Shown in pieces: positions 8,128 through 57,738 of a DNA stretch of 64,000 nt. This DNA is from a virus (taxonomy: Duplodnaviria; Heunggongvirae; Uroviricota; Caudoviricetes): the IMG/VR virus record IMGVR_UViG_3300027807_000001, positions 19,285 through 83,284 of that record, one strand, 5' to 3'. The notes beneath the pieces are model-generated. The model was not told the origin of the DNA. It saw only the letters and a list, made by a program, of their open reading frames with translations, and did not search any database. The translations under genes and the position numbers were made by a program. Within the stretch, counting starts at the first letter, position 1. Each line of letters starts with the position of its first letter.

Positions 8128-8160
8128 GGTGAGGTCTCAGGTGCACCTCACCAAAATAAA
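8128..8160 (+). terminator. intrinsic terminator hairpin GGTGAGGT/ACCTCACC with A/T-rich tail
   Basis: 8-bp GC-rich stem followed by AAAATAAAAA; ends the 3.8-8.1 kb gene block. Confidence 0.5.
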
Positions 8161-8180
8161 AAGGCCTTAAGTAAAATATA
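8146..8180 (+). promoter_or_regulatory. degenerate copy of the CCTCAC...TAAGTAAAATAT promoter-like element
   Basis: CCTCACC...TAAGTAAAATATA with a short spacer; overlaps the terminator 3' arm. Confidence 0.3.
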
Positions 8181-8214
8181 TCCTCAGCGTCTGCGCACGA
8201 CTCTATAGCCTTAT

Positions 8215-8250
8215 CCTCACAAAAAGATATAGGGTCGATAAGTAAAATAT
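8215..8250 (+). promoter_or_regulatory. promoter-like element CCTCACAAAAAG-N16-TAAAAT (copy 2)
   Basis: 10-copy conserved motif; -10-like TAAGTAAAATAT; 29 nt upstream of ORF 8279. Confidence 0.5.
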
Positions 8251-8278
8251 CGCATCACCTTCATAGGAGCCTATACAA

Positions 8279-8668
8279 ATGCTGACCCATGAACGCAATA
8301 AGAATCCTCGGACGAAGCGAGGGTGCCTCGCTTGCTACCAGATCGGTTCCACCGGAAAGGCGTTCGGATACATCGAGCTGACCTTGATGCCGATGTACGT
8401 CTCGAAGAAGGAAGGGGCGCCGCAGAAGTTGCCGGTCACGAAGGTCGTTGGTCTTTGCTTCAAGCATACCAAGGAGATGTGCGACCAGAGTCAGGGCTTC
8501 TGGCAAAAGACTCCCTTCGGGAAGATTCCCGTTCGCGATGAGGTCTACGCTCTTCGAGCGGAGTCCAAGGCCGTTAAGACTCCTTACTCCGCTCGGGACG
8601 AAGAGAAGACTTACCGGTCGGCGGCGCCGGGGGAGAGACCCTTCCTTCGCGTTCCGATGTGGTGGTGA
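8279..8668 (+). CDS. hypothetical protein (129 aa)
   Basis: first ATG after promoter copy 2; SD TAGGAG. Confidence 0.5.
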   Translation: MLTHERNKNPRTKRGCLACYQIGSTGKAFGYIELTLMPMYVSKKEGAPQKLPVTKVVGLCFKHTKEMCDQSQGFWQKTPFGKIPVRDEVYALRAESKAVKTPYSARDEEKTYRSAAPGERPFLRVPMWW

Positions 8669-8669
8669 C

Positions 8670-8885
8670 ATGAAGGCAAGCATCTTCGACGCGGCGGAAG
8701 TAGAACTTATCTATGGCATCCTCAATAAGATTGCCATGGCGGTTCCTCTGGATCAGACGGACAAGTCCGTGGCGAAAGCTCTGGTTGCCCGGTCGTTCGA
8801 CTGGACGCTGGCGAAAGCTCTGGCTGCCCGGATCGAAGCGCGAGACAGTAAGCTTTATCCTCACAAAAGCTTTAATGGTCTTTAA
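8670..8885 (+). CDS. hypothetical protein with internal AKALVAR/AKALAAR repeat
   Basis: ATG 2 nt after previous stop; track ORF 8448-8885 begins inside the previous gene; 3' end runs through promoter copy 3. Confidence 0.4.
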   Translation: MKASIFDAAEVELIYGILNKIAMAVPLDQTDKSVAKALVARSFDWTLAKALAARIEARDSKLYPHKSFNGL

Positions 8886-8894
8886 GTAAAATAG
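8859..8894 (+). promoter_or_regulatory. promoter-like element (copy 3) CCTCACAAAAG-N-TAAGTAAAATAG
   Basis: conserved motif; 60 nt upstream of ORF 8956. Confidence 0.45.
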
Positions 8895-8955
8895 ATCATC
8901 GACGTAGCCGTTCAACGATATAAGTCCTTAGGGTGACCTAAGGCAGGAGAAAGAA

Positions 8956-9312
8956 ATGTCCAACGAAGTCAAGCCGTTGCAGGTCAAGGAAGGGATGGTC
9001 GTGATTCTGCGGGCTCTGGAGAACGGGCCGCTCGGGTTCTCCAAGCTGCGGACCGCGTACTTCGGAGAGGGTCGCGCGAAGCTGCCCGCCACCACGGCCT
9101 TCTACATGAAGACCAAGGAAGCGCTGGAGAAGAAGCTGATCCAGAAGATCGACAAGACCTACAGCCTGACCGAGCTGGGCCAGGTGACCATCGCCGCTGT
9201 TCCGGACGAGGTCAAGGCCTCGGCGAAGTCCGAGGCGCAGAAGGCCTTCGAAGCCAGCCCGAAGGGCATCGCGTGGGCCGCGGCGCAGGCCGAGACCGAG
9301 GTCGCGGCTTAA
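8956..9312 (+). CDS. winged-helix-like family protein, paralog C (LRTAYFGEGRAKLPATTAFY)
   Basis: family motif; GC-rich codon usage; SD AGGAGAAAG. Confidence 0.6.
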   Translation: MSNEVKPLQVKEGMVVILRALENGPLGFSKLRTAYFGEGRAKLPATTAFYMKTKEALEKKLIQKIDKTYSLTELGQVTIAAVPDEVKASAKSEAQKAFEASPKGIAWAAAQAETEVAA

Positions 9313-10424: not shown

Positions 10425-10805
10425 ATGGCTACGCATACGCATCCGTCCACCAAGGCCGCGGCCGTCCCCGTTCAGACCGCGATGTCCAACAAAGCCGGGA
10501 AGCTGACCCCGGGCCGCATCGTCCTGCTCCGAGAGCTGCACAAGGCGCCGGGCGGCATCCTGAGCTTCGGTCAGCTCCGGATGGCGTACTTCGGGAAAGA
10601 GAGGGGCGCGGGCAACAAAGCCACGACGGCGTTCTACATGGCTCTGCAGCGCGTGATCGAGTTCCTCTGGATCGACAAGAACCCCGAGGGCGGCTATCGG
10701 CTGTCCGAGGCGGGAAAGGACATCATCGAAGCGGAGCTCAAGAAGGACCCGCGCGCCGTGGACCGCGCTCAGTCGCAGGCGGCGTTGAAGTACCACGTCG
10801 CCTAG
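10425..10805 (+). CDS. winged-helix-like family protein, paralog D (LRMAYFGKERGAGNKATTAFY)
   Basis: family motif; SD AAGGAGAAATACC; very GC-rich. Confidence 0.6.
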   Translation: MATHTHPSTKAAAVPVQTAMSNKAGKLTPGRIVLLRELHKAPGGILSFGQLRMAYFGKERGAGNKATTAFYMALQRVIEFLWIDKNPEGGYRLSEAGKDIIEAELKKDPRAVDRAQSQAALKYHVA

Positions 10806-10910
10806 TAGCGTAAGCCGTACGATCACCTGAGCCCAGCCGGGAGGGCGGCAGCACTATCCCGGCACAATTTTGTTATACGTGGGATGTCGACTTAACTTCG
10901 AGGTATTAAA

Positions 10911-11213
10911 ATGCTCCGAGAAGACATCAGTGCCACCATTCCCACCCTGCCTACCAGCGTCGTCTCTCCTGTCCATACCGAAGGATGCCGGACATCCCAC
11001 CAGACCTTCAAGGAGAGACAGGCGCGGTACGAAGCCGCCAAGCGTCGCAACAAGGCTGCCCATGAGGCCTTCAAGGCCGCCGTCGCTTCTTGGGAAGCCG
11101 AGAAAGAGAAGTTCCGAGAAGATGCCGACATCTTCTTCACGACCTTGGACATCCGCAAGGCCATCCAGAGCAAGTGCGCCGGCTGCTGCGGCGGTCGCAA
11201 GACCAAGAGGTAA
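10911..11213 (+). CDS. hypothetical protein (CAGCCGG C-terminus)
   Basis: SD GAGGT; balanced composition, unlike the P/S/R-rich alternative frame 10870-11262. Confidence 0.45.
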   Translation: MLREDISATIPTLPTSVVSPVHTEGCRTSHQTFKERQARYEAAKRRNKAAHEAFKAAVASWEAEKEKFREDADIFFTTLDIRKAIQSKCAGCCGGRKTKR

Positions 11214-11216
11214 CCC

Positions 11217-11456
11217 ATGGATCTCGAAAATCCTAAGTGCCCTTTCTGGTCTAAGCGCATGACCAATAAAGATCTCAAGGCTCGCCGGTGCGCCTCCCAG
11301 CAGCTTGTGCCTGTGCCAACCCCTAAAGGCAAGACCCTCTTGATCTGCCGGCAGCACAGGGCAGAGTTTCTTCAGACCGGAAAAGTCCGCACCAAGGTCG
11401 AAGCCAACCAACCTTACTCGACCCGCATCTACCGACCCACGGAGTGGCACAAGTGA
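11217..11456 (+). CDS. Cys-containing hypothetical protein (CPFW...CRQH)
   Basis: ATG 4 nt after previous stop. Confidence 0.5.
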   Translation: MDLENPKCPFWSKRMTNKDLKARRCASQQLVPVPTPKGKTLLICRQHRAEFLQTGKVRTKVEANQPYSTRIYRPTEWHK

Positions 11457-11508
11457 GCGACAAAGAAATCGCCAAGCGCTGGATGGATCATCTCTACGGA
11501 GTGACCAA

Positions 11509-11694
11509 GTGAGATTCTGGAATGACTTCCTCAGCCTCTTGATGGGCATCTATCTGTTCACATTCGGATGGATGTTCGTTTGGGGACTGATGTCCCACGT
11601 CGACCCCGTTCTTAACAGGTCGAATCGTTATCGATTCGAATTGATCTGCCCTGGCTATCAGCTCGGCAGATGGCTTACGGAGGCCGTCAAGTGA
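11509..11694 (+). CDS. small membrane protein
   Basis: hydrophobic LMGIYLFTFGWMFVWGLM. Confidence 0.45.
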   Translation: MRFWNDFLSLLMGIYLFTFGWMFVWGLMSHVDPVLNRSNRYRFELICPGYQLGRWLTEAVK

Positions 11695-13692: not shown

Positions 13693-13728
13693 CCTCACAA
13701 AAGGTTCTATGGGCGAAAGGTAAAATAT
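13693..13728 (+). promoter_or_regulatory. promoter-like element (copy 10) CCTCACAAAAG-N17-TAAAATAT
   Basis: conserved motif; immediately upstream of ATG 13732. Confidence 0.45.
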
Positions 13729-17914: not shown

Positions 17915-17950
17915 CCTCACAAAAAGACAACTGGGCGATAAGTAAAATAT
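17915..17950 (+). promoter_or_regulatory. promoter-like element (copy 4)
   Basis: CCTCACAAAAAG-N-TAAGTAAAATAT; 18 nt before ATG 17968. Confidence 0.5.
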
Positions 17951-17967: not shown

Positions 17968-18231
17968 ATGAAGAATAAACTGTTACTCGCCATAGCGATG
18001 ATTGTGGGGACTCTTTCTGCCTGTAAGCGCGAAGAGCAAGCGAAGAAATCTTACTGGCATCAAGAGCGATCAGGTTGGTTAGAACGATATCACGACGACG
18101 AGAAGAATGTAACCTGCTGGCTAATACCGGCAGGCCTCTCTTGCATCCCTGATTCGCAGCTGCAATCCTGCCACACAAATTTTCCATTGAATGAGTGGAC
18201 GACATCAAAGCCGCGAATCTGCCCTAGATAA
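17968..18231 (+). CDS. lipoprotein (MKNKLLLAIAMIVGTLSACKRE...)
   Basis: signal peptide with LSAC lipobox. Confidence 0.55.
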   Translation: MKNKLLLAIAMIVGTLSACKREEQAKKSYWHQERSGWLERYHDDEKNVTCWLIPAGLSCIPDSQLQSCHTNFPLNEWTTSKPRICPR

Positions 18232-28330: not shown

Positions 28331-28366
28331 CCTCACAAAAAGTCTGCGTGCTGTTTAGTAAAATAT
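28331..28366 (+). promoter_or_regulatory. promoter-like element (copy 5)
   Basis: CCTCACAAAAAG-N-TTAGTAAAATAT. Confidence 0.5.
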
Positions 28367-34315: not shown

Positions 34316-34351
34316 CCTCACAAAAAGACTAGAGGACTCAGAGTATAATAT
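34316..34351 (+). promoter_or_regulatory. promoter-like element (copy 6), 37-nt identical core with copy 7
   Basis: CCTCACAAAAAGACTAGAGGACTCAGAGTATAATAT. Confidence 0.5.
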
Positions 34352-39661: not shown

Positions 39662-39846
39662 AGATTATACTAATGCCAGTAGGGGTAGCAGTACTATGGG
39701 CAGCTGGCCACTGTATTAGTGGGAGGGCTGCTGCTCAGCAGGTTCCATGCAGGGGATGTCATACTTACAGATATGGAAACATATTCAGCGAGTACTGGCA
39801 CAAAAGGGCGTGTCTTCCCTTCTTAACGGAGAAAGTTGGTGGATAA
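39652..39846 (+). CDS. hypothetical Cys/His-containing protein (TTG start in track)
   Basis: start uncertain; frame relation to the previous ORF depends on G-tract length. Confidence 0.3.
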   Translation: MGLKIILMPVGVAVLWAAGHCISGRAAAQQVPCRGCHTYRYGNIFSEYWHKRACLPFLTEKVGG

Positions 39847-41495: not shown

Positions 41496-41659
41496 TGAAC
41501 ACCGCTTGGGCTGCATGGTCCCTTATCTGCGTAGCACTTATGGCTAACGGAGCAAGGAACAGATACAATATCTACGGTTGGAAGGATAAATGGTTCGGTA
41601 TCTTTTTAGTAGGAACTGTTTATAACGCAGTGGGGTTCTGGTTATTCCTAACTCACTAA
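41495..41659 (+). CDS. small membrane protein (54 aa)
   Basis: TAATG overlaps on both sides; hydrophobic. Confidence 0.35.
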   Translation: MNTAWAAWSLICVALMANGARNRYNIYGWKDKWFGIFLVGTVYNAVGFWLFLTH

Positions 41660-42084
41660 TGAGCATGGATCTTGTCTTTTTCTTCAGTGCACTAGCACTT
41701 CCCAGCTATATGCTAGTCTGCTTAGCAGATGTAGTGTTAGCAACCAGCTTAGAGAAGAAGCTACATTACTACCCACTGATAGACTTTGATTGCTTCTGCG
41801 GAAAGCACTGGAGCAATCTGTCGTCTCCAATTCTATTTCCTAATAGACTATACGACCTATATAAAATACACAGGCACATTAGTAGATGTCTCCCATGGAT
41901 AATGGTCGCAGAATTCAACGGGCTAACCCCTTACTGGGGATCTAGCCTAGCAGAAGACTTATCAAAACCTTCGGTGCTGTCAAGCTTTATAACCAAAGAA
42001 TGGCTCTTGAAGAAGGCTAGATTCAGAAGTCAAAGAGTAAGGGCAGGAAGAGATCCTTTTGATGACAGTGATGGACGCAAATAG
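41659..42084 (+). CDS. hypothetical protein with N-terminal transmembrane segment
   Basis: 141 aa; its stop abuts the tRNA-Leu 5' end. Confidence 0.5.
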   Translation: MSMDLVFFFSALALPSYMLVCLADVVLATSLEKKLHYYPLIDFDCFCGKHWSNLSSPILFPNRLYDLYKIHRHISRCLPWIMVAEFNGLTPYWGSSLAEDLSKPSVLSSFITKEWLLKKARFRSQRVRAGRDPFDDSDGRK

Positions 42085-42166
42085 GTCTAGTGGTGAAATG
42101 GCAAACACTGGAGACTTAAAATCTCCCGCTCGCAAGGGCTTGTGGGTTCGAGTCCCACCTAGACCA
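42084..42166 (+). tRNA. tRNA-Leu (anticodon TAA) with long variable arm
   Basis: acceptor GGTCTAG/CTAGACC, anticodon arm GGAGA-CTTAAAA-TCTCC, 15-nt variable arm, T-arm GTGGG-TTCGAGT-CCCAC, CCA encoded. Confidence 0.75.
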
Positions 42167-42173
42167 CCAATTT

Positions 42174-42398
42174 ATGTCTAAATTACAATTCTGGATTGTT
42201 AAATACGATCGTGGAGAAAAGTCTCACGCGACCGGATGGAATGCAGGGCAAGCCTTCGGGTGCTCATCTATTTGTAGAATGGGCCCGTATAACTGCCCAG
42301 AAGTAAGTCGTGCACCTTTTGACGGAAAGAACTTCCCCTCTTGTGTCCCCTGTGCGAAGTTAACTCAAAAGATGCTCCCAATGATAGCGATCAAATAA
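42174..42398 (+). CDS. hypothetical Cys-containing protein
   Basis: 74 aa. Confidence 0.45.
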   Translation: MSKLQFWIVKYDRGEKSHATGWNAGQAFGCSSICRMGPYNCPEVSRAPFDGKNFPSCVPCAKLTQKMLPMIAIK

Positions 42399-42400
42399 TT

Positions 42401-42694
42401 ATGGCAGACCTCTGTTGCTACGTATCTCCTATAATCAATACGGAGTACCCTTACTCTTATTGCTACTGTGTTCATTGTCATGATCTTATCTGCAATGAAT
42501 GCTCCGGAAAATTTCTTTACATTTCTGATGATGATGGAAGTGGATACTTTCACCACCAGAAATGTAAAGAAATCTGCGATGAGAATCCCTCCATTTATAA
42601 CAGTCAGTGGCATGAAAAGTACCCACGAACAGAGGATTGTAATGATCATGCCCTCTGCTTAAAAAGAAAGATTGTCACCGGGAAGAAGCCTTGA
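42401..42694 (+). CDS. LCC-family protein (LCCYVSP)
   Basis: MADLCCYVSPIINTEYPYSYCYCVHCHDLICNEC. Confidence 0.55.
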   Translation: MADLCCYVSPIINTEYPYSYCYCVHCHDLICNECSGKFLYISDDDGSGYFHHQKCKEICDENPSIYNSQWHEKYPRTEDCNDHALCLKRKIVTGKKP

Positions 42695-42903
42695 ACAGCA
42701 ACCTCTGTTGCCTCGCTAAAGCAGCGTATAGGTGCTGCGGATGCCATATAACTCTCTGCGAAGACCATTCCACAGAATACACAGCACCTATATGCGCTAC
42801 ACCACATAGGGTTACCATAGCCGCAGGGTCCCGTGTATGCCACGCGCATCCTCTAGATGATTTTGTTTTTGAAGAGGGGGCTTGGAGATTTTGGCATGAA
42901 TGA
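42691..42903 (+). CDS. LCC-family mini-protein (LCCLAKA)
   Basis: ATGA overlap; MNSNLCCLAKAAYRCCGCHITLC. Confidence 0.55.
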   Translation: MNSNLCCLAKAAYRCCGCHITLCEDHSTEYTAPICATPHRVTIAAGSRVCHAHPLDDFVFEEGAWRFWHE

Positions 42904-43087
42904 GCAGCTATGCTGTCAAATACATCCGGCGTTCAGATGCTGTGAATGCGCTCTATCTGTATGTACAGAACATTTTTCCACTAGCCAGGAAAGAGAATGC
43001 AGACTAATCCCCGGGAATTCTCATTGCTGCCTTCATGGTCTAGAGACCACCTCCATACTCTTGTTCCAGAGATCATATGAAGAATAA
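42896..43087 (+). CDS. LCC-family mini-protein (LCCQIHP)
   Basis: MNEQLCCQIHPAFRCCECALSVC. Confidence 0.55.
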   Translation: MNEQLCCQIHPAFRCCECALSVCTEHFSTSQERECRLIPGNSHCCLHGLETTSILLFQRSYEE

Positions 43088-43220
43088 GGCCCTTTGTTGC
43101 ATATTAAATCCTGTTGTGCAGGAAATGTGTATAGACCGTTATTCGGAAATGGCAGCTAAGAAAGTCACAGAGGGGCTCGATGCATTTCTAAAGAAGCTTA
43201 AGATACCCCTACCTCCGTAG
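43077..43220 (+). CDS. LCC-family mini-protein (LCCILNP), 47 aa
   Basis: MKNKALCCILNPVVQEMC; below track cutoff. Confidence 0.45.
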   Translation: MKNKALCCILNPVVQEMCIDRYSEMAAKKVTEGLDAFLKKLKIPLPP

Positions 43221-43226
43221 TCCTCA

Positions 43227-43262
43227 CCTCACAAAAAGACTAGAGGACTCAGAGTATAATAT
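43227..43262 (+). promoter_or_regulatory. promoter-like element (copy 7)
   Basis: identical 37-mer to copy 6. Confidence 0.5.
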
Positions 43263-43339
43263 ATTAACAGAAGGCGCCTCTTACAGGAGTAAACAAAAAC
43301 CGTTTGGAGAACACAATAGAATTTAAACGAGAAGGCGCA

Positions 43340-43540
43340 ATGCAGTCTCTGCCCCTATGTTGTAGCGTTAATCCCGTTAGATGTGATACCCGTAAAGGTA
43401 TGGCGTATTGTCCAGGTAACATAGGCATCTGTGCAGAACATCAAAAGGTTCTTTTTCAAGAGAAGGGCAAATGGATCACCCTCTGTAGAGCTTGTAGCGA
43501 CGCAATCTATGAAGCCGATAAGAAAAGACGCCATGGTTAA
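43340..43540 (+). CDS. LCC-family mini-protein (LCCSVNP)
   Basis: SD GAGAAGGCGCA; MQSLPLCCSVNPVRCD. Confidence 0.55.
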   Translation: MQSLPLCCSVNPVRCDTRKGMAYCPGNIGICAEHQKVLFQEKGKWITLCRACSDAIYEADKKRRHG

Positions 43541-43739
43541 GAACAATCTGTGTTGTCTAGTTAATCCATTCGTAAGGTGCAGGGAATGTTCAGCTACCAG
43601 GTGTGAGCAACATGGCGCTGCACCTTACGATTGTGGGACGGGCGTTTGGCCTGACACGCCCATAAAGGCGCACCTCTTCGAGTCGCTAATAGGATGGGGT
43701 CCTCTTATCTGGACAAAAGAATCTGGGTGGACATTTTGA
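43533..43739 (+). CDS. LCC-family mini-protein (LCCLVNP)
   Basis: MVKNNLCCLVNPFVRCRECSATRC. Confidence 0.55.
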   Translation: MVKNNLCCLVNPFVRCRECSATRCEQHGAAPYDCGTGVWPDTPIKAHLFESLIGWGPLIWTKESGWTF

Positions 43740-43918
43740 AGAAACTATGCTGTGCTGTTAATCCCTATATAATGTGCGCTACCTGTGGGTGGACATGTTG
43801 TAAAGATTGTGGTAATGAGATTTGGGAGATGCCAGGAGGACTTCTCTATTCTACTCACGCAAAAGACTCTGAGGAGTGTTATTATTGGGATCCAATAACA
43901 GTCGCCTCTGCTGCATAA
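43727..43918 (+). CDS. LCC-family mini-protein (LCCAVNP), GTG or TTG start
   Basis: KKLCCAVNPYIMCATCGWTCCKDC. Confidence 0.5.
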   Translation: MDILKKLCCAVNPYIMCATCGWTCCKDCGNEIWEMPGGLLYSTHAKDSEECYYWDPITVASAA

Positions 43919-44821: not shown

Positions 44822-45027
44822 ATAATTTAGCGTGTCTTATTAACGGGCACGAATGGCACGGAGAGTTCGACGCGAACGACCTTTCCCTACAAGCCTCTTT
44901 GGCTACGGGGTTCAAGGTGCTGTATGATAGCAAGGCTATCTGTTATTGGTGTAAAGAAAGAATTTTCTGGTCGTATAAAAATCCTAGTAGGCCTCGCTGG
45001 CAAACGTCAAAGGAAATAAATGGCTAA
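44818..45027 (+). CDS. Cys-rich subfamily B protein (LACLINGHEWHG), TTG start
   Basis: TTGA overlap. Confidence 0.45.
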   Translation: MNNLACLINGHEWHGEFDANDLSLQASLATGFKVLYDSKAICYWCKERIFWSYKNPSRPRWQTSKEING

Positions 45028-45901
45028 GCTTACCGTTTTAGTAGGACCGCCTGGCAGTGGGAAGAGCACCTACGCAAAGACTACTCAAGCGACATATATC
45101 AACCAAGATTCTCAAGGAAAGAATCATCTTAACTTGTTCAACGAGGCGCTTTCTCGGAAGGAAGATATAATTGTCGATAGGATGGGCTTTGACAAGGGGC
45201 AACGCGCCCGCTACATCGATCCAGCCAAAGCAGCTGGCTACGAAGTTAACATCCGTACCTTTGTCGTTCCTCGTAAGGTTTGTTTCGAGAGAGTGATGGC
45301 GAGAGTAGGACATGAGACCATCAAAGATGAGGTCGCAGCCAGATCAGCTATCAATCTCTTCTTCGCCAAGTACGATAAGCCTACGGATGCGGAAGGCAAG
45401 CTTGAGTTCGTTCAGTATGGTAGCCAGGATCTGGGCGGAGTTGTTCGCACCAAGCCTAAGGCTATCATTTGCGATCTCGATGGCACGATGTGCAACATTG
45501 ATCATCGGTTGCATTACGTGAAAAAGAATGTCGAGGGAGTTAAGCCTAACTGGTATATGTTCTTCAAAGGTATTCCTCGAGATACTCTCAATGAGTGGTG
45601 CGCTGATCTCGTTAGACGTTACAGCGGCGACCACCAGATCGTTTATTGTTCTGGGCGCGACGAAACTACGCGAGAGGTTACTGAGAAGTGGCTGAAGGAA
45701 CAGGGCGTATGGTTCGGTCATCTCTTTATGCGAAGTGCCGGCGACCACCGTCCGGATAATATCGTTAAGGAGATCTTACTAGACTTCGATATCCTTACTC
45801 AGTTTGATCCGGTACTCATGATCGATGATCGTCAACAAGTGACAGACATGTGGCGACGGCGTGGATTTATTTGTTTGCAGTGCGCGAAAGGCGATTTCTA
45901 A
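45020..45901 (+). CDS. polynucleotide 5'-kinase/3'-phosphatase (T4 Pnk-like)
   Basis: N-terminal P-loop GPPGSGKST kinase domain; C-terminal HAD motif CDLDGTM plus downstream MIDD; two-domain order as in T4 PseT. Confidence 0.8.
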   Translation: MAKLTVLVGPPGSGKSTYAKTTQATYINQDSQGKNHLNLFNEALSRKEDIIVDRMGFDKGQRARYIDPAKAAGYEVNIRTFVVPRKVCFERVMARVGHETIKDEVAARSAINLFFAKYDKPTDAEGKLEFVQYGSQDLGGVVRTKPKAIICDLDGTMCNIDHRLHYVKKNVEGVKPNWYMFFKGIPRDTLNEWCADLVRRYSGDHQIVYCSGRDETTREVTEKWLKEQGVWFGHLFMRSAGDHRPDNIVKEILLDFDILTQFDPVLMIDDRQQVTDMWRRRGFICLQCAKGDF

Positions 45902-49025: not shown

Positions 49026-49209
49026 TAGAAAGCTTTGCTGCGTGGTTAATACGGTTTACGTATGCAGAGACTGTGGCGAAAAGTATTGTGGGCCATGCGG
49101 AGATGACCGATGGATCTTAGTGTGGGTACCTTGGCCATCTCCAAGGATTAGATGCCGTATCTGCAATGGAGGCCACATCTATAACAAAGACGAGATTAGG
49201 CTATTATGA
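49009..49209 (+). CDS. LCC-family mini-protein (LCCVVNT), start uncertain
   Basis: RKLCCVVNTVYVCRDCGEKYC. Confidence 0.45.
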   Translation: MSITHNRKLCCVVNTVYVCRDCGEKYCGPCGDDRWILVWVPWPSPRIRCRICNGGHIYNKDEIRLL

Positions 49210-49340
49210 ATAATCTCTGTTGCACGGTAAATCCCGTCCTAAGGTGTGAGGTGTGTAAGTACTCGTACTGTCGGGATCATACATATCTGTGGCGGCGTCA
49301 TCACCTCACAAAAAGATATAGGGCATTAAGTATAATATGA
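49206..49340 (+). CDS. LCC-family mini-protein (LCCTVNP), 44 aa, 3' end runs through promoter copy 8
   Basis: ATGA overlap; MNNLCCTVNPVLRCEVCKYSYC. Confidence 0.45.
   Translation: MNNLCCTVNPVLRCEVCKYSYCRDHTYLWRRHHLTKRYRALSII
49304..49338 (+). promoter_or_regulatory. promoter-like element (copy 8)
   Basis: CCTCACAAAAAG-N15-TATAAT; 77 nt upstream of the MoxR gene. Confidence 0.5.
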
Positions 49341-49414: not shown

Positions 49415-50467
49415 TTGAGACCACTCGAAGTTGAAGAAGTCCTCAAATCGATTATCAGCAAGGGAGTTAAGTGTCCTGTCGTTGTGAAGGGAGACGCCGG
49501 AATCGGAAAGAGCCAGGTCATCCAGAAGGTTGGTCGGGACTTGGGCATGCACGTGATTGATTTGCGTCTTGCCCAGATGGAGCCGGGAGATTTGATTGGT
49601 CTTCCCCGGACCGACCCGGAATCCCACAAGACGGTGTGGTACGCTCCGGAGTGGTGGCCTTCGAAGAGCGATAAGGGGACTATCGTATTCTTCGACGAGC
49701 TCAATCGCGCGCCTGTCGATGTGCGACAGGCGGTTTTCCAGGTGCTGACGGAGTATAAGATGCACACGCACGTCCTCCCTGAGAACACCTTCCTCGTCGC
49801 GGCTATCAACCCTGATGAGGGCGGCAAGATGAATTACCAGGTCGAGCAGTTCGACCCCGCCATGGTAAATCGCATGTGCTTCATCTCCATGGAACCTGAT
49901 GGGCAGCAGTGGATCAACTGGGCCACCGCTGCGGGCGTGCATGAGATGGTGATTAAGTTTATCGCCGTCAATACCGCGATGTTGTACGCCGGCAGCGAGA
50001 CGGGCCCTTTCCCGTCGCCTCGCTCGTGGGTCCGCTTGTCGGATCTGATGAATGCGAATGCGATTCCGGCGTCAGCCCAATCGGAGGTTATCTCCGGCCT
50101 GATCGGTGAGAAGCCGGCGATCTCGTTCATTCGCTTCTTGGATAAGTCTTACAAGAAGCCGGTGAGCGGCAAGGAAGTCCTGGAATCGTTCGCGAAGTTC
50201 AAGGACAAGATCAAGGCGCAGAAGAACGACGAGAACTTCGTTACGATCTCGGAGCTCGTCGGTCTCCTGGGCGACGGAGCGAAGCTGAAGAAGGATCAGC
50301 TGACCAACGTCACCGACTTCGCCTTGGCGTTGAAGCAAGAGGAGAAGATGGCCTTGCTGAAGAAGCTGCCGAATTCTCTTCTGTCGAAGCTCGGTCAGAC
50401 CTCGCAGGACCTGTGCAATACGATCGCCTCTATCGCGGCTGAAATGGACAAGGAAAGAGGGCGGTAA
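49415..50467 (+). CDS. MoxR-type AAA+ ATPase
   Basis: TTG start with strong SD AAAGGAGGAG; Walker A GDAGIGKSQ, Walker B IVFFDELNRAP, MoxR-type sensor region. Confidence 0.85.
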   Translation: MRPLEVEEVLKSIISKGVKCPVVVKGDAGIGKSQVIQKVGRDLGMHVIDLRLAQMEPGDLIGLPRTDPESHKTVWYAPEWWPSKSDKGTIVFFDELNRAPVDVRQAVFQVLTEYKMHTHVLPENTFLVAAINPDEGGKMNYQVEQFDPAMVNRMCFISMEPDGQQWINWATAAGVHEMVIKFIAVNTAMLYAGSETGPFPSPRSWVRLSDLMNANAIPASAQSEVISGLIGEKPAISFIRFLDKSYKKPVSGKEVLESFAKFKDKIKAQKNDENFVTISELVGLLGDGAKLKKDQLTNVTDFALALKQEEKMALLKKLPNSLLSKLGQTSQDLCNTIASIAAEMDKERGR

Positions 50468-51082: not shown

Positions 51083-51322
51083 ACGAATCAGAATAAAGCA
51101 AGAGGGGATGGAACAGATCTATGTTGTCTAGTTAACCCTTATAGACGGCATCGAAATTGTTCTTATGCTTTTTGCATAGCTCATTACTGGAACGAATCCC
51201 GCGCACGAGCAGGACTAGGGCCACTGCAAGACGTAGCAAATACTCTTGACGGCAAATGTATTCGATGTGGTAAGGATGCAAGCACTGAAGCTGAATGGGA
51301 GTACGTTGTTGAAGAAAGCTAG
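51080..51322 (+). CDS. LCC-family protein (LCCLVNP)
   Basis: MTNQNKARGDGTDLCCLVNPYRRHRNCSYAFC; close paralog of 52435-52686. Confidence 0.55.
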   Translation: MTNQNKARGDGTDLCCLVNPYRRHRNCSYAFCIAHYWNESRARAGLGPLQDVANTLDGKCIRCGKDASTEAEWEYVVEES

Positions 51323-51512
51323 GCTGTGCTGTTTAATAAACACCCACACAGCGTGTTCTGTTTGCGAAAAGAAGTGGTGTGCACCTCATTGGGTGCAGGA
51401 AGGGGCTAGTCATTATTTTTTCAAGACGGCGGGAAACCTCGAATACAGTTGCAACGGCTTATCTTTAATAAGAAGTGAACCTTGCGGAATCTACCTCAAA
51501 GTCTCTACTTGA
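51276..51512 (+). CDS. LCC-family mini-protein (LCCLINT), start uncertain
   Basis: KARLCCLINTHTACSVCEKKWC. Confidence 0.5.
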   Translation: MQALKLNGSTLLKKARLCCLINTHTACSVCEKKWCAPHWVQEGASHYFFKTAGNLEYSCNGLSLIRSEPCGIYLKVST

Positions 51513-51564
51513 GAAGCAAACTGAGATGCGGTTATAGTGATTCGAACAATCTTGGAGATAAATA

Positions 51565-51903
51565 ATGAAACCTGCCACTTTACTTTCTAGAGAAGATATT
51601 GTATTACTACTAGAGCGCGCGCGTAGCCGGCGAATGTTCAGCGCAGAGGACCTCAGAGAATTCGCTTCAAATCTGCCGGATGACAAAGCATTTGCGCTGT
51701 CGCGACTACTCCCGAAAGATATTCAAGAGAAACTTCTCTCTCATAGAGACCAGACCTTTGCAGACAAGGTATTAAACTTTTGGAGTTCAATTTCAAAGGA
51801 AGGAGCCTTAGTAGAAGTAACTAAGGCTAAGGTTGCCGATGATCAGTTTTTAGTAACTCATGCAATCCCGTTGCTTACACTTATTGGGGTTGAAGGTTAC
51901 TAA
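51565..51903 (+). CDS. hypothetical protein (112 aa)
   Basis: ATG ORF, not Cys-rich. Confidence 0.5.
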   Translation: MKPATLLSREDIVLLLERARSRRMFSAEDLREFASNLPDDKAFALSRLLPKDIQEKLLSHRDQTFADKVLNFWSSISKEGALVEVTKAKVADDQFLVTHAIPLLTLIGVEGY

Positions 51904-52081
51904 ATAGTAGGTGTTTATAGAGATGTTTATGCCACGCACTTGTAGTGAGTTGTAGCTCGTGAGCCCCAATAAAGGGGGTGCGTCTGGTTAGATTATTGAC
52001 GTACTCACCGAACTGCTAAAACAAGATCGTAATAGCGGTAATGTTCGGGAGATAAAAATCCGAATCCTGAGGATAGATTTT

Positions 52082-52285
52082 ATGCAGACAGATCAACAGT
52101 TGTGTTGCATTATTAATCCAAGGTTCACCTGCGATAGATGCAAACAAAAGAGTTGTGAGGACCATTTCTTCGCCTGGCGCAATATCCATAAGATACCTTC
52201 GTACAAAGAGTCGTTACACAACAACGCCCATTGGTATTGCGAAAGTGCACGAGGATATATCGGAAGATATGGTAGACCAGTCTAA
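52082..52285 (+). CDS. LCC-family mini-protein (LCCIINP)
   Basis: MQTDQQLCCIINPRFTCDRCKQKSC. Confidence 0.55.
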   Translation: MQTDQQLCCIINPRFTCDRCKQKSCEDHFFAWRNIHKIPSYKESLHNNAHWYCESARGYIGRYGRPV

Positions 52286-52454
52286 GCGCTTGTGCTGCAT
52301 CGTTAATGAGATCGTCAAATGCGAAGACTGCGGCTATGGTATTTGTAAAGGTCACTTCTTCAAGAAGAGGGCTAGCAGCAGAACAAGATGTCTAAAGTGT
52401 TTCCGCAAGCAGATCATGCGGCACAGGCAAGGGAATGAACAACCTAAAATCTAA
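52269..52454 (+). CDS. LCC-family mini-protein (LCCIVNE)
   Basis: MVDQSKRLCCIVNEIVKCEDCGYGIC. Confidence 0.55.
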   Translation: MVDQSKRLCCIVNEIVKCEDCGYGICKGHFFKKRASSRTRCLKCFRKQIMRHRQGNEQPKI

Positions 52455-52686
52455 AGGAGACGGTACAGATTTATGTTGTCTAATAGCGCCTATTCGGAAG
52501 TGTTTAAACTGCGGTCTTACGCTATGTAATGACCACTGGTGGAATTCTGCTAGGGATTTGTTAGGGCTGTCTCCTCTGCCGACAACCGGAGGGGAGGATC
52601 CCCACGCTGTATGCCCTAGATGTTTTTATGCCAAAAAAGCTACATCTAAAGAGTTAGAGAGCTTACGCACCTGGGAAATTGCATGA
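52435..52686 (+). CDS. LCC-family protein (LCCLIAP)
   Basis: KGDGTDLCCLIAPIRKCLNCGLTLC; paralog of 51080. Confidence 0.55.
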   Translation: MNNLKSKGDGTDLCCLIAPIRKCLNCGLTLCNDHWWNSARDLLGLSPLPTTGGEDPHAVCPRCFYAKKATSKELESLRTWEIA

Positions 52687-52913
52687 AGTATTTTACTAGA
52701 TGGGGATTTGAGCCAGGAAACGCCTCCACTGGATTCGAATTTGGTAATCGAGAATTATACTCAACTGATTGGGATCGACAAGAGAGATGGCGTCTAGTAG
52801 GGAATATCCTTACAGGATACATAGCTATCGGCCGCTTTAGAACAGCTCTTAAATTTTACCACCCCGGTTCCTGGCGATTCTATATGATTTTGGTTCATCC
52901 AACTCGCGGATAA
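52683..52913 (+). CDS. hypothetical protein (not Cys-rich)
   Basis: ATGA overlap; 76 aa. Confidence 0.45.
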   Translation: MKYFTRWGFEPGNASTGFEFGNRELYSTDWDRQERWRLVGNILTGYIAIGRFRTALKFYHPGSWRFYMILVHPTRG

Positions 52914-52929
52914 TTACGAGGGTTTCATA

Positions 52930-53151
52930 ATGAAACTTTGCTGTATCGTTAATCCCTACACCATATGCATTTGTAACATGCAGTTTTGCTCACAATGCCT
53001 CGGAGATACTTCTAGAGATTCCTCTTTAGGAGGAGGGCACATTGTGCAAGTGAACAGTGCATGGGATGGTCGAGGACGATGTACAGTTACTGGGAAGATA
53101 GTGATCTGCTCACCTAAGCAGAAGAATACCGACCCGTGGCGATTAATATAG
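52930..53151 (+). CDS. LCC-family mini-protein (LCCIVNP)
   Basis: MKLCCIVNPYTICICNMQFCSQC. Confidence 0.55.
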   Translation: MKLCCIVNPYTICICNMQFCSQCLGDTSRDSSLGGGHIVQVNSAWDGRGRCTVTGKIVICSPKQKNTDPWRLI

Positions 53152-53160
53152 AGAGGGCAG

Positions 53161-53358
53161 ATGGAGATTAAATGGTTTAAGAAGTACAGACCCCTCTGCT
53201 GCATCGTTAACCCAGTAGCATCTGAAGATACGCGTTCATACTACGATGGATACCAGACTTATGTGAAGAAAGTTTACTGCTGCGAAGCTGTAAACAGATG
53301 TGCTGATCATCATGCACCAGGATGTTGGAGAAGAATTAAGTGGCACCCGGTTGTTTAG
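53161..53358 (+). CDS. LCC-family mini-protein (LCCIVNP)
   Basis: YRPLCCIVNPVASEDTRSYYDGY. Confidence 0.55.
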   Translation: MEIKWFKKYRPLCCIVNPVASEDTRSYYDGYQTYVKKVYCCEAVNRCADHHAPGCWRRIKWHPVV

Positions 53359-53371: not shown

Positions 53372-53517
53372 TCCAACACCATCGCTGCCTAGCAAATGCT
53401 ATAGCTGTCTTGTAGAAGGAAAGTGCGCAGAGCATCATGCCGATAATTGTATAAGAAAAGTTATTTGGCGACTACAACAAAGTTTAGAAGAGTTATCGAA
53501 ACCATCCGAGGATTAAA
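53372..53517 (+). CDS. Cys-rich variant (LVCLINP...CYSC), GTG start
   Basis: shifted-Cys variant, short. Confidence 0.35.
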
Positions 53518-54785
53518 TGGACAAAATACAAAAAGCGCAGATAGCATTACTTACTTCTAATGGTATCTTCTACGCTGCCCTCATGCAACAGATGAATCGC
53601 ATTGAAGGGAAAGATGTCCTCCCTAAGGATGCTCTCGCTGCTGTTCTCGTCCAGAACGGTCGTATCAATCTTTATACGAACTGCGAACTCTACGACAAGT
53701 TTAATCTTGATCAGATGTGTCGAATCTTGGAGCATGAGATGCTCCACGTGATCTTAGAGCATGGTAGCCGTTGCCCGAGCGGCGCAGGTTCTCTGTGGAA
53801 TATCGCATCAGATCTTGCCGTTAATTCATTAATCCCCGGCATGGATTTAGGGCTTCTTCCTGGTAAAGATCAGTTCAAAGATTTCCCCCTTGCCAAGTCT
53901 GCCGAATTTTACTACGGTCTGTTAAAGGATAAGCAGGGCAAAGGCGACTTATCTATTGACAAAGATGGCGATGTAAGTATGAAGGGTAAGGGCGGAAAGA
54001 TGGAGAAGGTAAAGACGGGCAAGTGCCCCTCTACTGAAAAGAGCGATTCTAAGTCCTCCGACGCGGAAAAGCTTGCCAAAGAAGTAGTTAAGCAAGCGGT
54101 TGCAGAAGCGATGGCAGAATCGTCTAGAACAGCCGGCGGCGCTCCTGCTGGACTTGAATCTATCATTGATGATCTTCTGAAGAAGAGCACCGTTAATTGG
54201 AAAGCAGTCCTTCGCCAGTTCGTCGGCTCTGCAGTCAAGTGTGGATCCAAATCTACCTGGAAAAGACAGTCCCGTCGCTTTGGAGATACGCAGAAGGGCA
54301 AGATGCCCGACCGAATGTTAGAGGTGGCAGTCGCTATCGATACCTCGGGGTCTATCACAGATGAAGATCTTGCCGAGTTTGTTGGTGAGATGAAGGGTAT
54401 CTTGAAGTCATACAAGTCAAAGATTCACGTCGTTGAGTGTGGCACATCCGTCGACAGGGCCTACGATCTTAAGCCGCATACCAAGATCAATTCAAAGTTC
54501 TTCGGTCGCGGCGGCGGAGACTTACGCCCCCCGTATGAATACTTCAAGGAAAAGAGGAAGAAGCCCAATGTATTAGTGTATTTTACGGACTGCTATGAAC
54601 AAGCTCCCGACAAAGAAACTATCAAGACTTTGTGGGTACGACCGAGTCAGGTTGACGGTACTAAGCCGCCTGAGATGCCCTTTGGCAAAGTTCTGCAGAT
54701 CCCTCGCCGGGGAGATTCTAGATCAGGCTACTGCCCTATTTGTAATCAGCCGGGGTGTAATTGTAACACGGCGGCGCGTCGCTAA
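53517..54785 (+). CDS. vWA-domain protein with N-terminal HExxH putative metallopeptidase domain (MoxR partner type), paralog 1
   Basis: HEMLHVILEH near the N-terminus; MIDAS motif VAIDTSGSI in the C-terminal vWA domain; 422 aa. Confidence 0.75.
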   Translation: MDKIQKAQIALLTSNGIFYAALMQQMNRIEGKDVLPKDALAAVLVQNGRINLYTNCELYDKFNLDQMCRILEHEMLHVILEHGSRCPSGAGSLWNIASDLAVNSLIPGMDLGLLPGKDQFKDFPLAKSAEFYYGLLKDKQGKGDLSIDKDGDVSMKGKGGKMEKVKTGKCPSTEKSDSKSSDAEKLAKEVVKQAVAEAMAESSRTAGGAPAGLESIIDDLLKKSTVNWKAVLRQFVGSAVKCGSKSTWKRQSRRFGDTQKGKMPDRMLEVAVAIDTSGSITDEDLAEFVGEMKGILKSYKSKIHVVECGTSVDRAYDLKPHTKINSKFFGRGGGDLRPPYEYFKEKRKKPNVLVYFTDCYEQAPDKETIKTLWVRPSQVDGTKPPEMPFGKVLQIPRRGDSRSGYCPICNQPGCNCNTAARR

Positions 54786-55464: not shown

Positions 55465-55976
55465 AAGAGATTTGGAAGACAGTACCATCGAACGACGACT
55501 ACGCTGTGTCGAACTTTGGGCACATCAAGAGGACCAGGTGGGTCAATGGCGCCAAGCGCGCGGGTCGTTCTTTAGGATACAACTGCGAGAGCGGCTATAG
55601 AGAAGTAGCATTCTATGACACTAAGCATAGGAAGACAGTTAGACTTATACACCAAGTTGTCGCAGAAGCATTCTTAGGACCTTGCCCCCCAGGCAAAGAA
55701 ATTAATCATAAAGATGGGAATAAGCGTAACAATAGATTAGACAATCTGGAGTACGTGACTCCCAGCCAGAACATCCGGCATGCTATCGAGACAGGGCTAC
55801 TTGTACCTGTACGCGGGACTCAAGTCAGCACTTCTGTGCTAACGAACAGGCAAGTTCGGCGAATACGGGAGCGGTTTAAAAAAGGAGCGTCGATGTCGGA
55901 TATTGCTAGACGTCTCAAGATAGGATTGACTACTGTTTCGGACATTGTTAATCGGCGTACTTGGACACATATTTAA
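55458..55976 (+). CDS. HNH homing endonuclease with NUMOD4-like N-terminus and C-terminal HTH
   Basis: WKTVPSNDDYAVSNFGHIKR (NUMOD4-like), HQVVAEAF...NHKDGNKRNNRLDNLEYV (HNH core), C-terminal helix-turn-helix. Confidence 0.75.
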   Translation: MVEEIWKTVPSNDDYAVSNFGHIKRTRWVNGAKRAGRSLGYNCESGYREVAFYDTKHRKTVRLIHQVVAEAFLGPCPPGKEINHKDGNKRNNRLDNLEYVTPSQNIRHAIETGLLVPVRGTQVSTSVLTNRQVRRIRERFKKGASMSDIARRLKIGLTTVSDIVNRRTWTHI

Positions 55977-55997
55977 TAAGATGGTCCTGAGGAGAAT

Positions 55998-56276
55998 GTG
56001 AGCAGCCAGGATACTCTAGACGATGATAGAGCAGACAGAGTACCTTTCAACGGGCTCTGTTGTCAAACCAACCCTGTTCTGGTCTGTGAAGGGTGCGGCG
56101 TACGCTGGTGCAATGATCATGAACTATCATATAGATGGCGAGATGCTATCTCGCATAGGAACTTGGGATACTCTATACCGAAAAAAGAATGTTGTTGGGA
56201 TTGTCCAGTGGTGGGACACGTTCGACGCGTAGAGCCTCGCGTTAAAGACGCACCTTGGGCCTTCAGATCATTCTAA
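55998..56276 (+). CDS. LCC-family protein (LCCQTNP), GTG start
   Basis: GLCCQTNPVLVCEGCGVRWC; close to 54795 (CEGCNARWC). Confidence 0.5.
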   Translation: MSSQDTLDDDRADRVPFNGLCCQTNPVLVCEGCGVRWCNDHELSYRWRDAISHRNLGYSIPKKECCWDCPVVGHVRRVEPRVKDAPWAFRSF

Positions 56277-56336
56277 TCAGATTTACGCTAATACGCACCG
56301 GAGACTATATTCTATGTCCAATGCACCGAGCGGAAA

Positions 56337-56618
56337 ATGACTTTCAATAAAATCTTACTGGCGTATGCCATTGGATTTGTAGTCGCTCCATTTATTTCAG
56401 GTAAACTGGTCAAAGTGCCTCCCGAGCAAGCGGAGCAAAGAGTCTGGGTGGACTTGATTATCGCATGTATGTGGCCTGCATTCGCAGGATTTGTAATACT
56501 GCTAACGATCGTTAGTCTCCCCACCATTCTTAAAAATCTATCGAATAGACTCTCTGCTAAGTTAGAGGCTAAGCGGGAAGTCAAGAAAGTTCTAAGCGAT
56601 CTTGGAGTAAAAGAATGA
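56337..56618 (+). CDS. membrane protein (two transmembrane segments)
   Basis: hydrophobic. Confidence 0.5.
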   Translation: MTFNKILLAYAIGFVVAPFISGKLVKVPPEQAEQRVWVDLIIACMWPAFAGFVILLTIVSLPTILKNLSNRLSAKLEAKREVKKVLSDLGVKE

Positions 56619-57058
56619 CAGTATTCAATGTTACGTTGAAGGATAAGGATTATGTCATCAAAAGCTTTGATAAGATGAGAAACGTCAAAGCTATTAAACT
56701 CAAGAGACTGCTGGCGAAAGTTCCCGCTTGGGAAAGAGAAATAACGCGCCTTGAGGATACTACTCCCCTCGCTCTTCTGAAAGAAAGACTAGCTCTTCTA
56801 GAAAAGCTGTCTAAAGAAGAAGGGCTATCTTATAACAAACAAGGAACCCTTTCTTATTCAAAGGGGGCAGTCACTTTCGACGACCTTCGCAGCAGAATTT
56901 GCACACACCAAGACGGCTCTGTTTCTCTCGATGTATATGTCCCTAGGAGTAAGTATGGCGCGTACCGCTCACCGAGCGACAGGGTGTTGCGTATCTTCGT
57001 GGGAGATACCACACGAATAACTAACACAATCCTGCAGCACCTACTAAAGAAGGTGTGA
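56615..57058 (+). CDS. hypothetical protein (147 aa)
   Basis: ATGA overlap. Confidence 0.5.
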   Translation: MTVFNVTLKDKDYVIKSFDKMRNVKAIKLKRLLAKVPAWEREITRLEDTTPLALLKERLALLEKLSKEEGLSYNKQGTLSYSKGAVTFDDLRSRICTHQDGSVSLDVYVPRSKYGAYRSPSDRVLRIFVGDTTRITNTILQHLLKKV

Positions 57059-57173
57059 GTGCGTAGCATTAAAATGAACTTGCCTATCCCCTGCAAGCAA
57101 GTAATGGGTTTTCCTTCGTCTGAGAAAAACGGGGATGCCGTCACAATATACGAAAGGAAGAAAGGGTGATTCC

Positions 57174-57518
57174 ATGAAAATTGGACGAAAGGTGCTAGAA
57201 TCGTGGCGTCGATTCCTGAGTAATATTTTGATCGCCCTTGGAGCCAAGGAATATATGCCAGCGCCTGCACCCATCAACACAATTGAAGCCATACTCTCAA
57301 CTCTGAATGGTGGTCCAACGGGCCCCTGGGTAACCGTTGAAGGCTATCATGCGGTTTCAGTTCCGATAGTTAGTTCTAACTTCGTTAATTTTACTCCCCC
57401 AAATCCGGGCGGAATTATTTTGAAGACGTTTTTTAATACGGCAACGGGAGAGGTCCGCTTTTATGCGGCTAAGTTCCTGAATATCCCAGAGGGTGAGAGA
57501 GAGTTTCTTTTTCGGTAA
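57174..57518 (+). CDS. hypothetical protein
   Basis: SD AAGGGTGATTCC then ATG; track start 57135 is earlier. Confidence 0.45.
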   Translation: MKIGRKVLESWRRFLSNILIALGAKEYMPAPAPINTIEAILSTLNGGPTGPWVTVEGYHAVSVPIVSSNFVNFTPPNPGGIILKTFFNTATGEVRFYAAKFLNIPEGEREFLFR

Positions 57519-57702
57519 ATCTCATGTCCCCAGCTCCAACCAAAGCCGTTTTGGCCGAATCAGTTTCGCAATTAGCTCAAAAAGTCGTCGCGACGCGGAG
57601 TATGCAGGAGAAGTCTTTCTCTCGGAGAGAGTATAACTTTGCCATGTAACATCTTCTCCCCGGGTACTCCACTTGAATGTAGGAAGTAACTGTGATACCA
57701 CA

Positions 57703-57738
57703 CCTCACAAAAAGCCTCGTAGGCGTTTAGTATAATAT
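57703..57738 (+). promoter_or_regulatory. promoter-like element (copy 9)
   Basis: CCTCACAAAAAG-N16-TATAATAT; 67 nt upstream of ORF 57805. Confidence 0.5.

Follow-up and report, generated by a model that had tools for sequence, protein, structure and literature searches.

A 36-nt element that recurs on the plus strand of a 64,000-nt stretch of a Caudoviricetes virus genome (IMG/VR record IMGVR_UViG_3300027807_000001, positions 19,285 to 83,284; the window in what follows) very probably marks promoters of some kind, to judge from sequence comparison. Gapless alignment of its copies gives the consensus CCTCACAAAAAG-N12-TAAGTAWAATAT, in which a nearly invariant 12-nt upstream box precedes a -10 hexamer of the sigma70 type. 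The phage is uncultured and of the jumbo type (210-kb contig), without a cultured relative. The window lies in reverse orientation on the JGI metagenome contig Ga0116230_10000007 (210,340 bp; sample 3300009510, peat moss), where it corresponds to positions 191,060 down to 127,061, and the sequence that we read comprises about 82 of the 210 kb of the phage genome (39%), namely, the window plus flanks to -8.7 kb on the left and +73 kb on the right. A megablast search with 12 kb of the window found no similar DNA among GenBank phages, the best protein matches were about 30% identical and came from assorted jumbo phages, and a scan of IMG/VR with the motif and two proteins found no relatives.

A bipartite element in fixed register

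The original prediction, made from the sequence alone, had listed ten plus-strand copies, one of them degenerate, and all ten were found (Table 1). The exact 12-mer CCTCACAAAAAG occurs at 8215, 17915, 28331, 34316, 43227, 49304, and 57703, and the box is present with one or two mismatches at 8146, 8859, and 13693. With up to two mismatches allowed, the 12-mer gave 15 matches in the window versus 5.9 +/- 2.5 in shuffled sequence, and the composite CCTCAC-N21-GTAWAAT was observed 8 times where 0.15 occurrences were expected. For profile scanning, we used a position-weight scan and an nhmmer profile trained on 21 copies, 49304 being excluded from training; the training set also held a chance match from a bacterial contig (L127, see below), the effect of which was negligible. 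The resulting scores were bimodal: true copies reached 23 to 43 bits, with 28.4 bits for 49304, all other sequence remained below 8 bits, and the copy that had been called degenerate, 8146, stood apart at 9.2 bits. Even among 116 unrelated loci preselected on the core pattern, the profile score did not exceed 20 bits. An 11th copy was present in the right-hand extension, at window-equivalent position 68474, between a glutamine amidotransferase gene and a gene for a 203-aa protein. It equals 43227 at 46 of 46 profile positions, and the identity of these two copies extends over about 58 nt when the flanks are included.

The two halves of the element stand in a nearly constant register: eight copies have (N)GTAWAAT starting 26 nt from the start of the box, and this distance shrinks to 25 nt at 49304 and to 24 nt at 8146. 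The spacing of 15 to 17 nt proposed earlier is correct when measured from the box to the TAWAAT hexamer (16 nt) but not between the two 12-mers, which are separated by 12 nt. The hexamer is TAAAAT or TATAAT in every copy, and the flanking G at -13 and A at -6 are conserved, giving GTAWAAT with a conserved G directly 5' of the hexamer and AT directly 3' of it. With the hexamer at -12 to -7, the box would occupy about -40 to -29. The spacer is also nonrandom, as GGnC, a G-rich patch found for instance within ATAGGGTC or TAGAGGAC, recurs some 6 to 10 nt into it. Two pairs of copies had been said to have identical spacers; 34316 and 43227 are indeed identical over 37 to 38 nt, whereas 8215 and 49304 have only the box and the first 8 spacer bases in common, 20 nt in total. 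Short-read assemblies of the same phage break inside copies (L003, covering window positions 34323 to 43247; L004, which starts at 34323; and L121, which ends at 68494), an assembly artefact that confirms the identity of the repeats.

Of the 11 copies, 9 fall wholly in noncoding sequence, which by the recorded gene calls makes up 25% of the total, and none was found on the minus strand of the approximately 82 kb read. The remaining two copies overlap just the final codons of open reading frames (ORFs) 8670-8885 and 49206-49340, so that the overlap with 3' ends reported earlier is real. All copies are co-oriented with the genes. In eight copies, 13 to 79 nt separate the -10 from the first called start codon downstream, where 15 to 80 nt had been claimed for all copies; for 13693 and 43227, the distance is greater or uncertain. 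The mRNA starting from 34316 would be almost leaderless. Intervals between successive copies run from 0.07 to 10.8 kb, the scale of operons. The genes served comprise small ORFs, genes for tRNAs and RNA repair, a MoxR/VWA set, and a block that extends up to a DNA ligase gene. In the MoxR/VWA set, a MoxR-like AAA ATPase gene (49415-50467) is followed by two paralogous DUF2201 VWA/metallopeptidase genes (53517-54785 and 57805-59016), and the first and third genes of this trio each have an element upstream.

Table 1. Copies of the element in the window, a diverged related site, and the winged-helix paralogs
Feature	Coordinates	Strand	Description	Position relative to genes
Element copy	8146..8179	+	Degenerate, CCTCACCAAAAT-N10-TAAGTAAAATAT; spacer 2 nt short; 9.2 bits	Tandem with 8215, 69 nt upstream of it
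Element copy	8215..8250	+	Full	31 nt upstream of ATG 8279 (129-aa gene, AGGAG ribosome-binding site)
Element copy	8859..8894	+	Full; box AAAAGC	Covers final 27 nt of ORF 8670-8885; 64 nt upstream of winged-helix gene 8956-9312
Element copy	13693..13728	+	Full; box AAAAGG, -10 GGTAAAAT	Downstream gene uncertain; 36-aa ORF from 13732, next called gene 14122
Element copy	17915..17950	+	Full	20 nt upstream of lipoprotein-like gene 17968-18231
Element copy	28331..28366	+	Full	9 nt past stop of gene 27957-28322; 29 nt ahead of 38-aa gene at 28393
Element copy	34316..34351	+	Full	13 nt ahead of ATG 34362
Element copy	43227..43262	+	Full	7 nt past stop of gene 43077-43220; downstream gene unclear
Element copy	49304..49338	+	Full; spacer 1 nt shorter	Equals final 12 codons plus stop of 44-aa ORF 49206-49340; about 79 nt upstream of MoxR-like AAA gene at 49415
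Element copy	57703..57738	+	Full	About 70 nt upstream of DUF2201 VWA/metallopeptidase gene at 57805
Diverged site	569..604	+	CGTCATAAAAAT-TGCACAGGCGAC-TGTGTATAATTA; box 9/12, in exact register	Upstream of tmRNA gene (623-992)
Winged-helix paralog 1	5285..5608	+	107 aa; candidate DNA-binding regulator	
Winged-helix paralog 2	7425..7661	+	78 aa	In block ahead of first elements
Winged-helix paralog 3	8956..9312	+	118 aa	First gene past element 8859
Winged-helix paralog 4	10425..10805	+	126 aa	

The element is also present in seven related metagenomic contigs, in four of them at orthologous intergenic sites. Among the matches listed in a metagenome motif scan, at least four are true relatives (L009, L063, L005, and L031); the close relatives are syntenic with the window, their proteins being 55 to 84% identical and their DNA about 70%. 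In L009, L063, and L005, the element occupies the site orthologous to 68474. L031 has two copies, both on its minus strand: the one at position 468 is orthologous to 8859 and has an identical box, and the one at position 53, 415 nt upstream of the first, is likely the counterpart of 8215. A four-way alignment shows no variation in AGTA.AATA or in ten adjacent columns of the box (CCTCACAAAA); the spacer has kept its length and diverged in sequence, and the flanks are unconserved. Two further contigs, L130 and L131, were found via homologs of the CCA-adding enzyme (64 to 69% identical) and carry two copies each in the same register. L132, the most distant relative (CCA-adding enzyme 54% identical), has two variant copies, CCTCGCAAAWWW-N-ATAGGGGCTA-N2-(A/C)GTATAATTAATA, again in the same register, with CCTCGC in place of CCTCAC. 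Since both halves and the distance between them are kept while the surroundings drift, the element looks like a promoter, and we regard these comparative data as strong evidence for a bipartite one.

In 185,579 bacterial and archaeal genomes, the composite gave six single matches, which is chance level. The best of the six, L127, was rejected as a family member, as it carries genes for a phosphofructokinase and a ClpP-like protease and would be a chance match on a bacterial contig. Taken together, the assignment of the element to a virus-specific promoter class appears well supported, albeit indirectly, by its co-orientation with genes, intergenic position, sigma70-type -10, and fixed register, and by the conservation of box and -10, but not of the spacer, at orthologous sites, with chance-level occurrence in cellular genomes. 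The gene content beside orthologous copies differs from that of the window: in L009, an extra gene separates the element from the amidotransferase gene, and L005 has an extra small gene past the element. These differences come from just three to four comparisons. In the window itself, ORF 49206-49340 ends inside a copy and appears to have been truncated by it.

Promoter type and candidate readers of the box

The upstream box is, as had been remarked, unlike TTGACA. The sequence 16 to 18 bp upstream of the -10 reads CAAAAA/AAAAAG, leaving no -35 at that position, and CTCACA, which matches TTGACA at 4 of 6 positions, lies 21 bp from the -10. Canonical TTGACA-N16-18-TATAAT sites are not enriched in the window (20 versus 19.9, 32 versus 26.3, and 30 versus 29.5), and a scan with the sigma70 consensus flagged just one site among the copies, at 17924, via an offset hexamer. 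As far as sequence comparison goes, the box matches no known -35, MotA box, or phage-polymerase promoter. Searching the full-text literature for the sequence strings turned up only unrelated primers, and no RNA family of Rfam matched at the element sites. The promoter consensus is new, and so probably is its reader, but the kind of element is a familiar one.

By analogy, the T4 middle promoter would be the nearest functional counterpart of the element and the PeSL/PmSL cassette the nearest in genome behavior. Like T4 middle promoters, the element combines a host-type -10 with a phage-specific sequence that replaces the -35 at a fixed distance, and both serve delayed-early/middle genes, including tRNA genes and genes of nucleic acid metabolism. 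The MotA box of T4, however, reads (a/t)(a/t)TGCTT(t/c)A, is centered at -30, and lies 11 to 13 nt from the -10 (PMC4122927), whereas the box described here, CCTCACAAAAAG, is longer, is centered near -34, and lies 16 nt from the -10; moreover, the phage is unrelated to T4. Cassettes of the T4 middle type, designated Pm, have been described in vibriophage nt-1 (PMC4122927). The PeSLs of T4-like phages combine a near-consensus TTGACA-type -35 with an adjoining terminator stem-loop (PMC2839356, PMC4122927). They resemble the element in being near-identical short cassettes that lie among small ORFan genes, with some copies tandem or degraded. PeSLs occupy plastic regions, at places where gene content differs among relatives, and there are hints of the same for the element. 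In contrast to PeSLs, the element has no sigma70 -35. Folding of the 130 nt ahead of the copies revealed no hairpin with a T-run that recurred consistently, terminator scans found no terminator-like sites adjoining the copies, and a PeSL-like upstream terminator hairpin was therefore rejected. The same applies to a conserved hairpin presenting the box in its loop. Some copies have a short inverted repeat around the box, for instance, AGTCCTC/GAGGACT at 43227, but its mean length of 4.4 nt is barely above the 3.7 nt of a mismatched-pair control, so that support for such a hairpin is only marginal.

Among jumbo phages, the early promoters of phiKZ and 201phi2-1 are conserved at -10, -20, and -30 (PMC11512511, PMC8244752), the phiKZ motif being an AT-rich extended -10 with a T-rich stretch upstream of -19 (PMC8244752). 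These motifs share with the element their length and uniformity, patches near -10, -20, and -30, and a position at the head of operons of small hypothetical genes, but they are AT-rich and without a CCTCAC-like GC-containing box, whereas the spacer in the present element is G-rich (GGnC). T7-like promoters consist of a contiguous recognition sequence of about 23 bp and the N4 hairpin has a stem of 5 to 7 bp with a 3-nt loop; the element, by contrast, is bipartite with a variable spacer, and no such hairpin was found.

Four winged-helix paralogs (Table 1) are candidates for binding the box, although their connection with it is one that we infer. They are 37 to 51% identical to one another, are clustered at the head of the rightward block, and give weak PadR/HTH_45/Mrr_N matches. 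The predicted fold of paralog 3 (pLDDT 78) matches MarR, PadR, RosR, LmrR, TubR, and other winged-helix DNA binders, and the arrangement in which element 8859 is followed by a winged-helix gene is kept in L031. Pfam and PHROG scans of the element-adjacent genes revealed no sigma, MotA, AsiA, or polymerase. A DksA/TraR-type zinc finger gene at 59719-59916 hints at dealings with the bacterial polymerase.

Explanations of the element

We favor the explanation that the elements are phage-specific promoters of the delayed-early/middle phase that are used by a bacterial-type holoenzyme together with a phage-encoded factor reading the box, and as a whole statement we give it about an even chance of being right. 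Each element would drive a rightward transcription unit of 0.6 to 11 kb in the early/auxiliary half of the genome. A bacterial-type RNA polymerase holoenzyme would read GTAWAATAT as the -10 and start some 6 to 8 nt downstream. As there is no usable -35, a phage-encoded specificity factor would recognize the CCTCACAAAAAG box at about -40 to -29 and perhaps also the G-rich patch of the spacer at about -22 to -18. Such a factor may be an activator, a sigma-remodeling pair, or a phage sigma. The immediate-early block would then consist of the approximately 4 kb of small genes at 3827-8067, ahead of the first element, and would encode winged-helix paralogs 1 and 2, the best candidates at hand for the box binder, with the other two paralogs downstream of the first elements. 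We arrive at this reading because 12 near-invariant bases far exceed the usual -35, because no copy occurs in region 3827-8067, directly after which comes the tandem pair at 8146 and 8215, and because the box differs by a single base in the most distant relative. A late function, which had been considered alongside a middle one, is unlikely, given that the genes served are of early/middle types and that 8.7 kb of the terminase-containing minus-strand block to the left holds no full copy of the element and only a 7.8-bit variant.

Several observations weigh against this reading. No MotA, AsiA, or sigma homolog was found among the Pfam annotations and scans of the 82 kb read. MarR/PadR-type winged-helix proteins usually bind palindromes, often as dimeric repressors, and the box, unlike such sites, is nonpalindromic. 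The host may have an unusual -35 preference. Finally, the identity from copy to copy (the common spacers and the approximately 58 nt that 43227 and 68474 have in common) could stem from recent duplication or gene conversion instead of selection exerted by a factor.

A more specific proposal, which we advance tentatively and are inclined to doubt somewhat more than to believe, is that an undescribed, phage-encoded promoter-specificity system docks at the CCTCAC box in an uncultured clade of peat/soil jumbo phages. Possibly, a small family of winged-helix activators replaces -35 recognition in this system, which would make it a functional analogue of T4 MotA/AsiA built from different parts. Factor and site would then have co-evolved, as marked by the switch from CCTCAC to CCTCGC in L132.

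It is unlikely, in our estimation, that the host holoenzyme, in unmodified form, uses the elements as strong early promoters, the box being a host-specific upstream contact that the phage has optimized, either an unusual -35 or a proximal UP-like A-tract. The early promoters of T4-type phages are highly uniform, and a sigma70-like -10 serving genes of early type would suit such a scheme, as would the presence of GTATAAT at two promoter-like sites that lack the full box (CTGTGTATAATTAA, at the tmRNA gene and at gene 3219-3512). Furthermore, canonical sigma70 promoters are unenriched, so the early genes need some other promoter, and the CCA-adding enzyme has homologs in metagenome-assembled genomes (MAGs) of Planctomycetota and Myxococcota, whose promoters are poorly known. 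Yet CAAAAA/AAAAAG at 16 to 18 bp is unlike any described -35, and CTCACA at 21 bp is too far from the -10. Nor does a usual -35 come near 12 almost invariant bases, and the first 4 kb of the plus-strand block would have to do without any copy. The A-to-G change in the box of the distant relative likewise better fits a dedicated reader that co-evolves with its site.

The same lack of canonical host promoters, together with the jumbo size of the phage (210-kb contig), could point instead to promoters for a phage-encoded RNA polymerase, either carried in the virion or made after infection, as in phiKZ-like and AR9-like jumbo phages. The tripartite look of the element, with its box, a G-rich patch near -20, and the -10, does resemble the early promoters of phiKZ and 201phi2-1 (PMC11512511, PMC8244752). 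We nevertheless consider such a polymerase distinctly improbable, as the element differs from the early motif of phiKZ, which is AT-rich and has its T-rich stretch upstream of -19, the -10 of the element is a textbook TATAAT/TAAAAT, and the 82 kb read contains no polymerase-like gene. The three large unannotated proteins of the left flank also lack any phage homologs. The DksA/TraR-type gene would also be more in keeping with dealings with the bacterial enzyme. Least probable of all, with very little weight in our judgment, is that the element is not primarily a promoter but a repeated protein-binding or recombination cassette whose AT-rich end merely resembles a -10. The winged-helix proteins, for instance, might use it as an operator, or gene modules might be swapped through it by homologous exchange. 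What speaks for a cassette is the identity of 43227 and 68474 over about 58 nt, 37 nt of which are common to 34316, the neighbors of orthologous copies that differ between L005 or L009 and the window, the apparent truncation of ORF 49206-49340, and the short inverted repeats around the box in some copies. However, in the relatives, conservation of the -10-like half equals that of the box, the two halves lie at a constant distance, every copy faces genes and precedes start codons, and the inverted repeat barely rises above its control. A role in recombination would in any case be compatible with promoter function, as the PeSL cassettes illustrate.

Phage-specific promoter classes are the switches of the infection program. 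In the early/auxiliary half of this jumbo phage, the element would delimit about a dozen transcription units and so supply a map of operons, and its 36-nt signature recognizes clade members in metagenomes. Should a phage factor read the box, it would represent an independent solution to the replacement of the -35, for which, to our knowledge, T4 is as yet the sole case understood in detail. The practical value stays modest until a host or transcript data become available.

Related sites and genome context

The site at 569-604 (Table 1) is possibly a diverged 12th member of the family. Its predicted start lies about 13 nt ahead of the tmRNA gene, its spacer has GGCG, as do three full copies, and its -10, GTATAATTAATA, is that of the variant copies in L132; in the profile scan it scored 5.4 bits, which is not significant alone. 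An identical 14-mer, CTGTGTATAATTAA, occurs twice (0.02 expected): at 592-605 on the plus strand, just upstream of the tmRNA gene, and at 3545-3558 on the minus strand, in a divergent intergenic region upstream of the minus-strand gene 3219-3512. These two sites may represent a second promoter type with a common GTATAAT -10. The presence of GTATAAT at sites with and without the full box fits one polymerase reading the -10 and something extra reading the box. The left minus-strand block has a single weak variant of the element, TTAGGCAAAAGG-CCGTCGGGTCGA-GTCGTATAGT, which scored 7.8 bits and lies upstream of a gene for a 161-aa protein.

Two other noncoding features were observed near start codons. 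The motif CCGTGCACAWTT occurs in intergenic regions of the plus strand at 9804, 22478, and 50588 (and 32550), shortly ahead of start codons, and its copy at 32550 lies inside a hairpin, CACGGGG...CCCCGTG. At 8920-8955, a hairpin, CCTTAGG-gtga-CCTAAGG, is located directly 5' of the Shine-Dalgarno sequence of gene 8956; the counterpart in L031 (minus strand) has a different sequence, CTCAGG-tagcc-CCTGAG, which suggests a conserved structure in the 5' untranslated region.

The left flank (L133, positions 1 to 9145) is a minus-strand block with the large terminase gene (531 aa), presumably the late module. The window would thus start at a divergent junction between this block and a long rightward early/auxiliary region. 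The block also encodes a 976-aa protein with a LAGLIDADG_3 domain, which possibly contains an intein, and three large proteins (604, 390, and 441 aa) that had no tblastn or PHROG match in phage databases. The window itself contains more than 100 small ORFs, nearly all on the plus strand, in addition to the tmRNA gene (tag DKSLLAVANEIVNNAFARELAVA) and four tRNA genes at 19795, 21544, 24271, and 42084. Its RNA-repair set comprises the CCA-adding enzyme (36440-37819) and an Rnl1-type RNA ligase, a polynucleotide kinase-phosphatase, and a cREC_REC protein, the latter three among 30570-30950, 40084-41223, and 45020-45901. A BCS1-like AAA ATPase is encoded as well, and relatives have NADAR, NAPRTase, and PRPP-synthase-like genes in addition. 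Among cellular proteins, the closest homologs of the CCA-adding enzyme, from Planctomycetota and Myxococcota MAGs, are 46 to 48% identical to it, and L130 encodes a prepilin-type N_methyl protein; together these offer a weak hint as to the host.

Between 9000 and 12000, the window is GC-rich (0.54 to 0.58 versus about 0.46 elsewhere), and this stretch holds one of the few minus-strand ORFs, 10854-11549, whose 231-aa product has no family match. About 30 paralogous small Cys-rich proteins of roughly 40 to 110 aa are encoded on the plus strand between 1752 and 62382, for instance, at 20667, 24373, 30381, 33094, 36017, 43095-43909, 49036, 49218, 51122-53197, 61889, and 62382. Each has LCCx(V/I)N(P/T) close to the N terminus and, after it, CxxC...CxxC, which is zinc-ribbon-like. 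The family also occurs in the distant relatives L130 and L132 and is a very large expansion of a single family for one phage.

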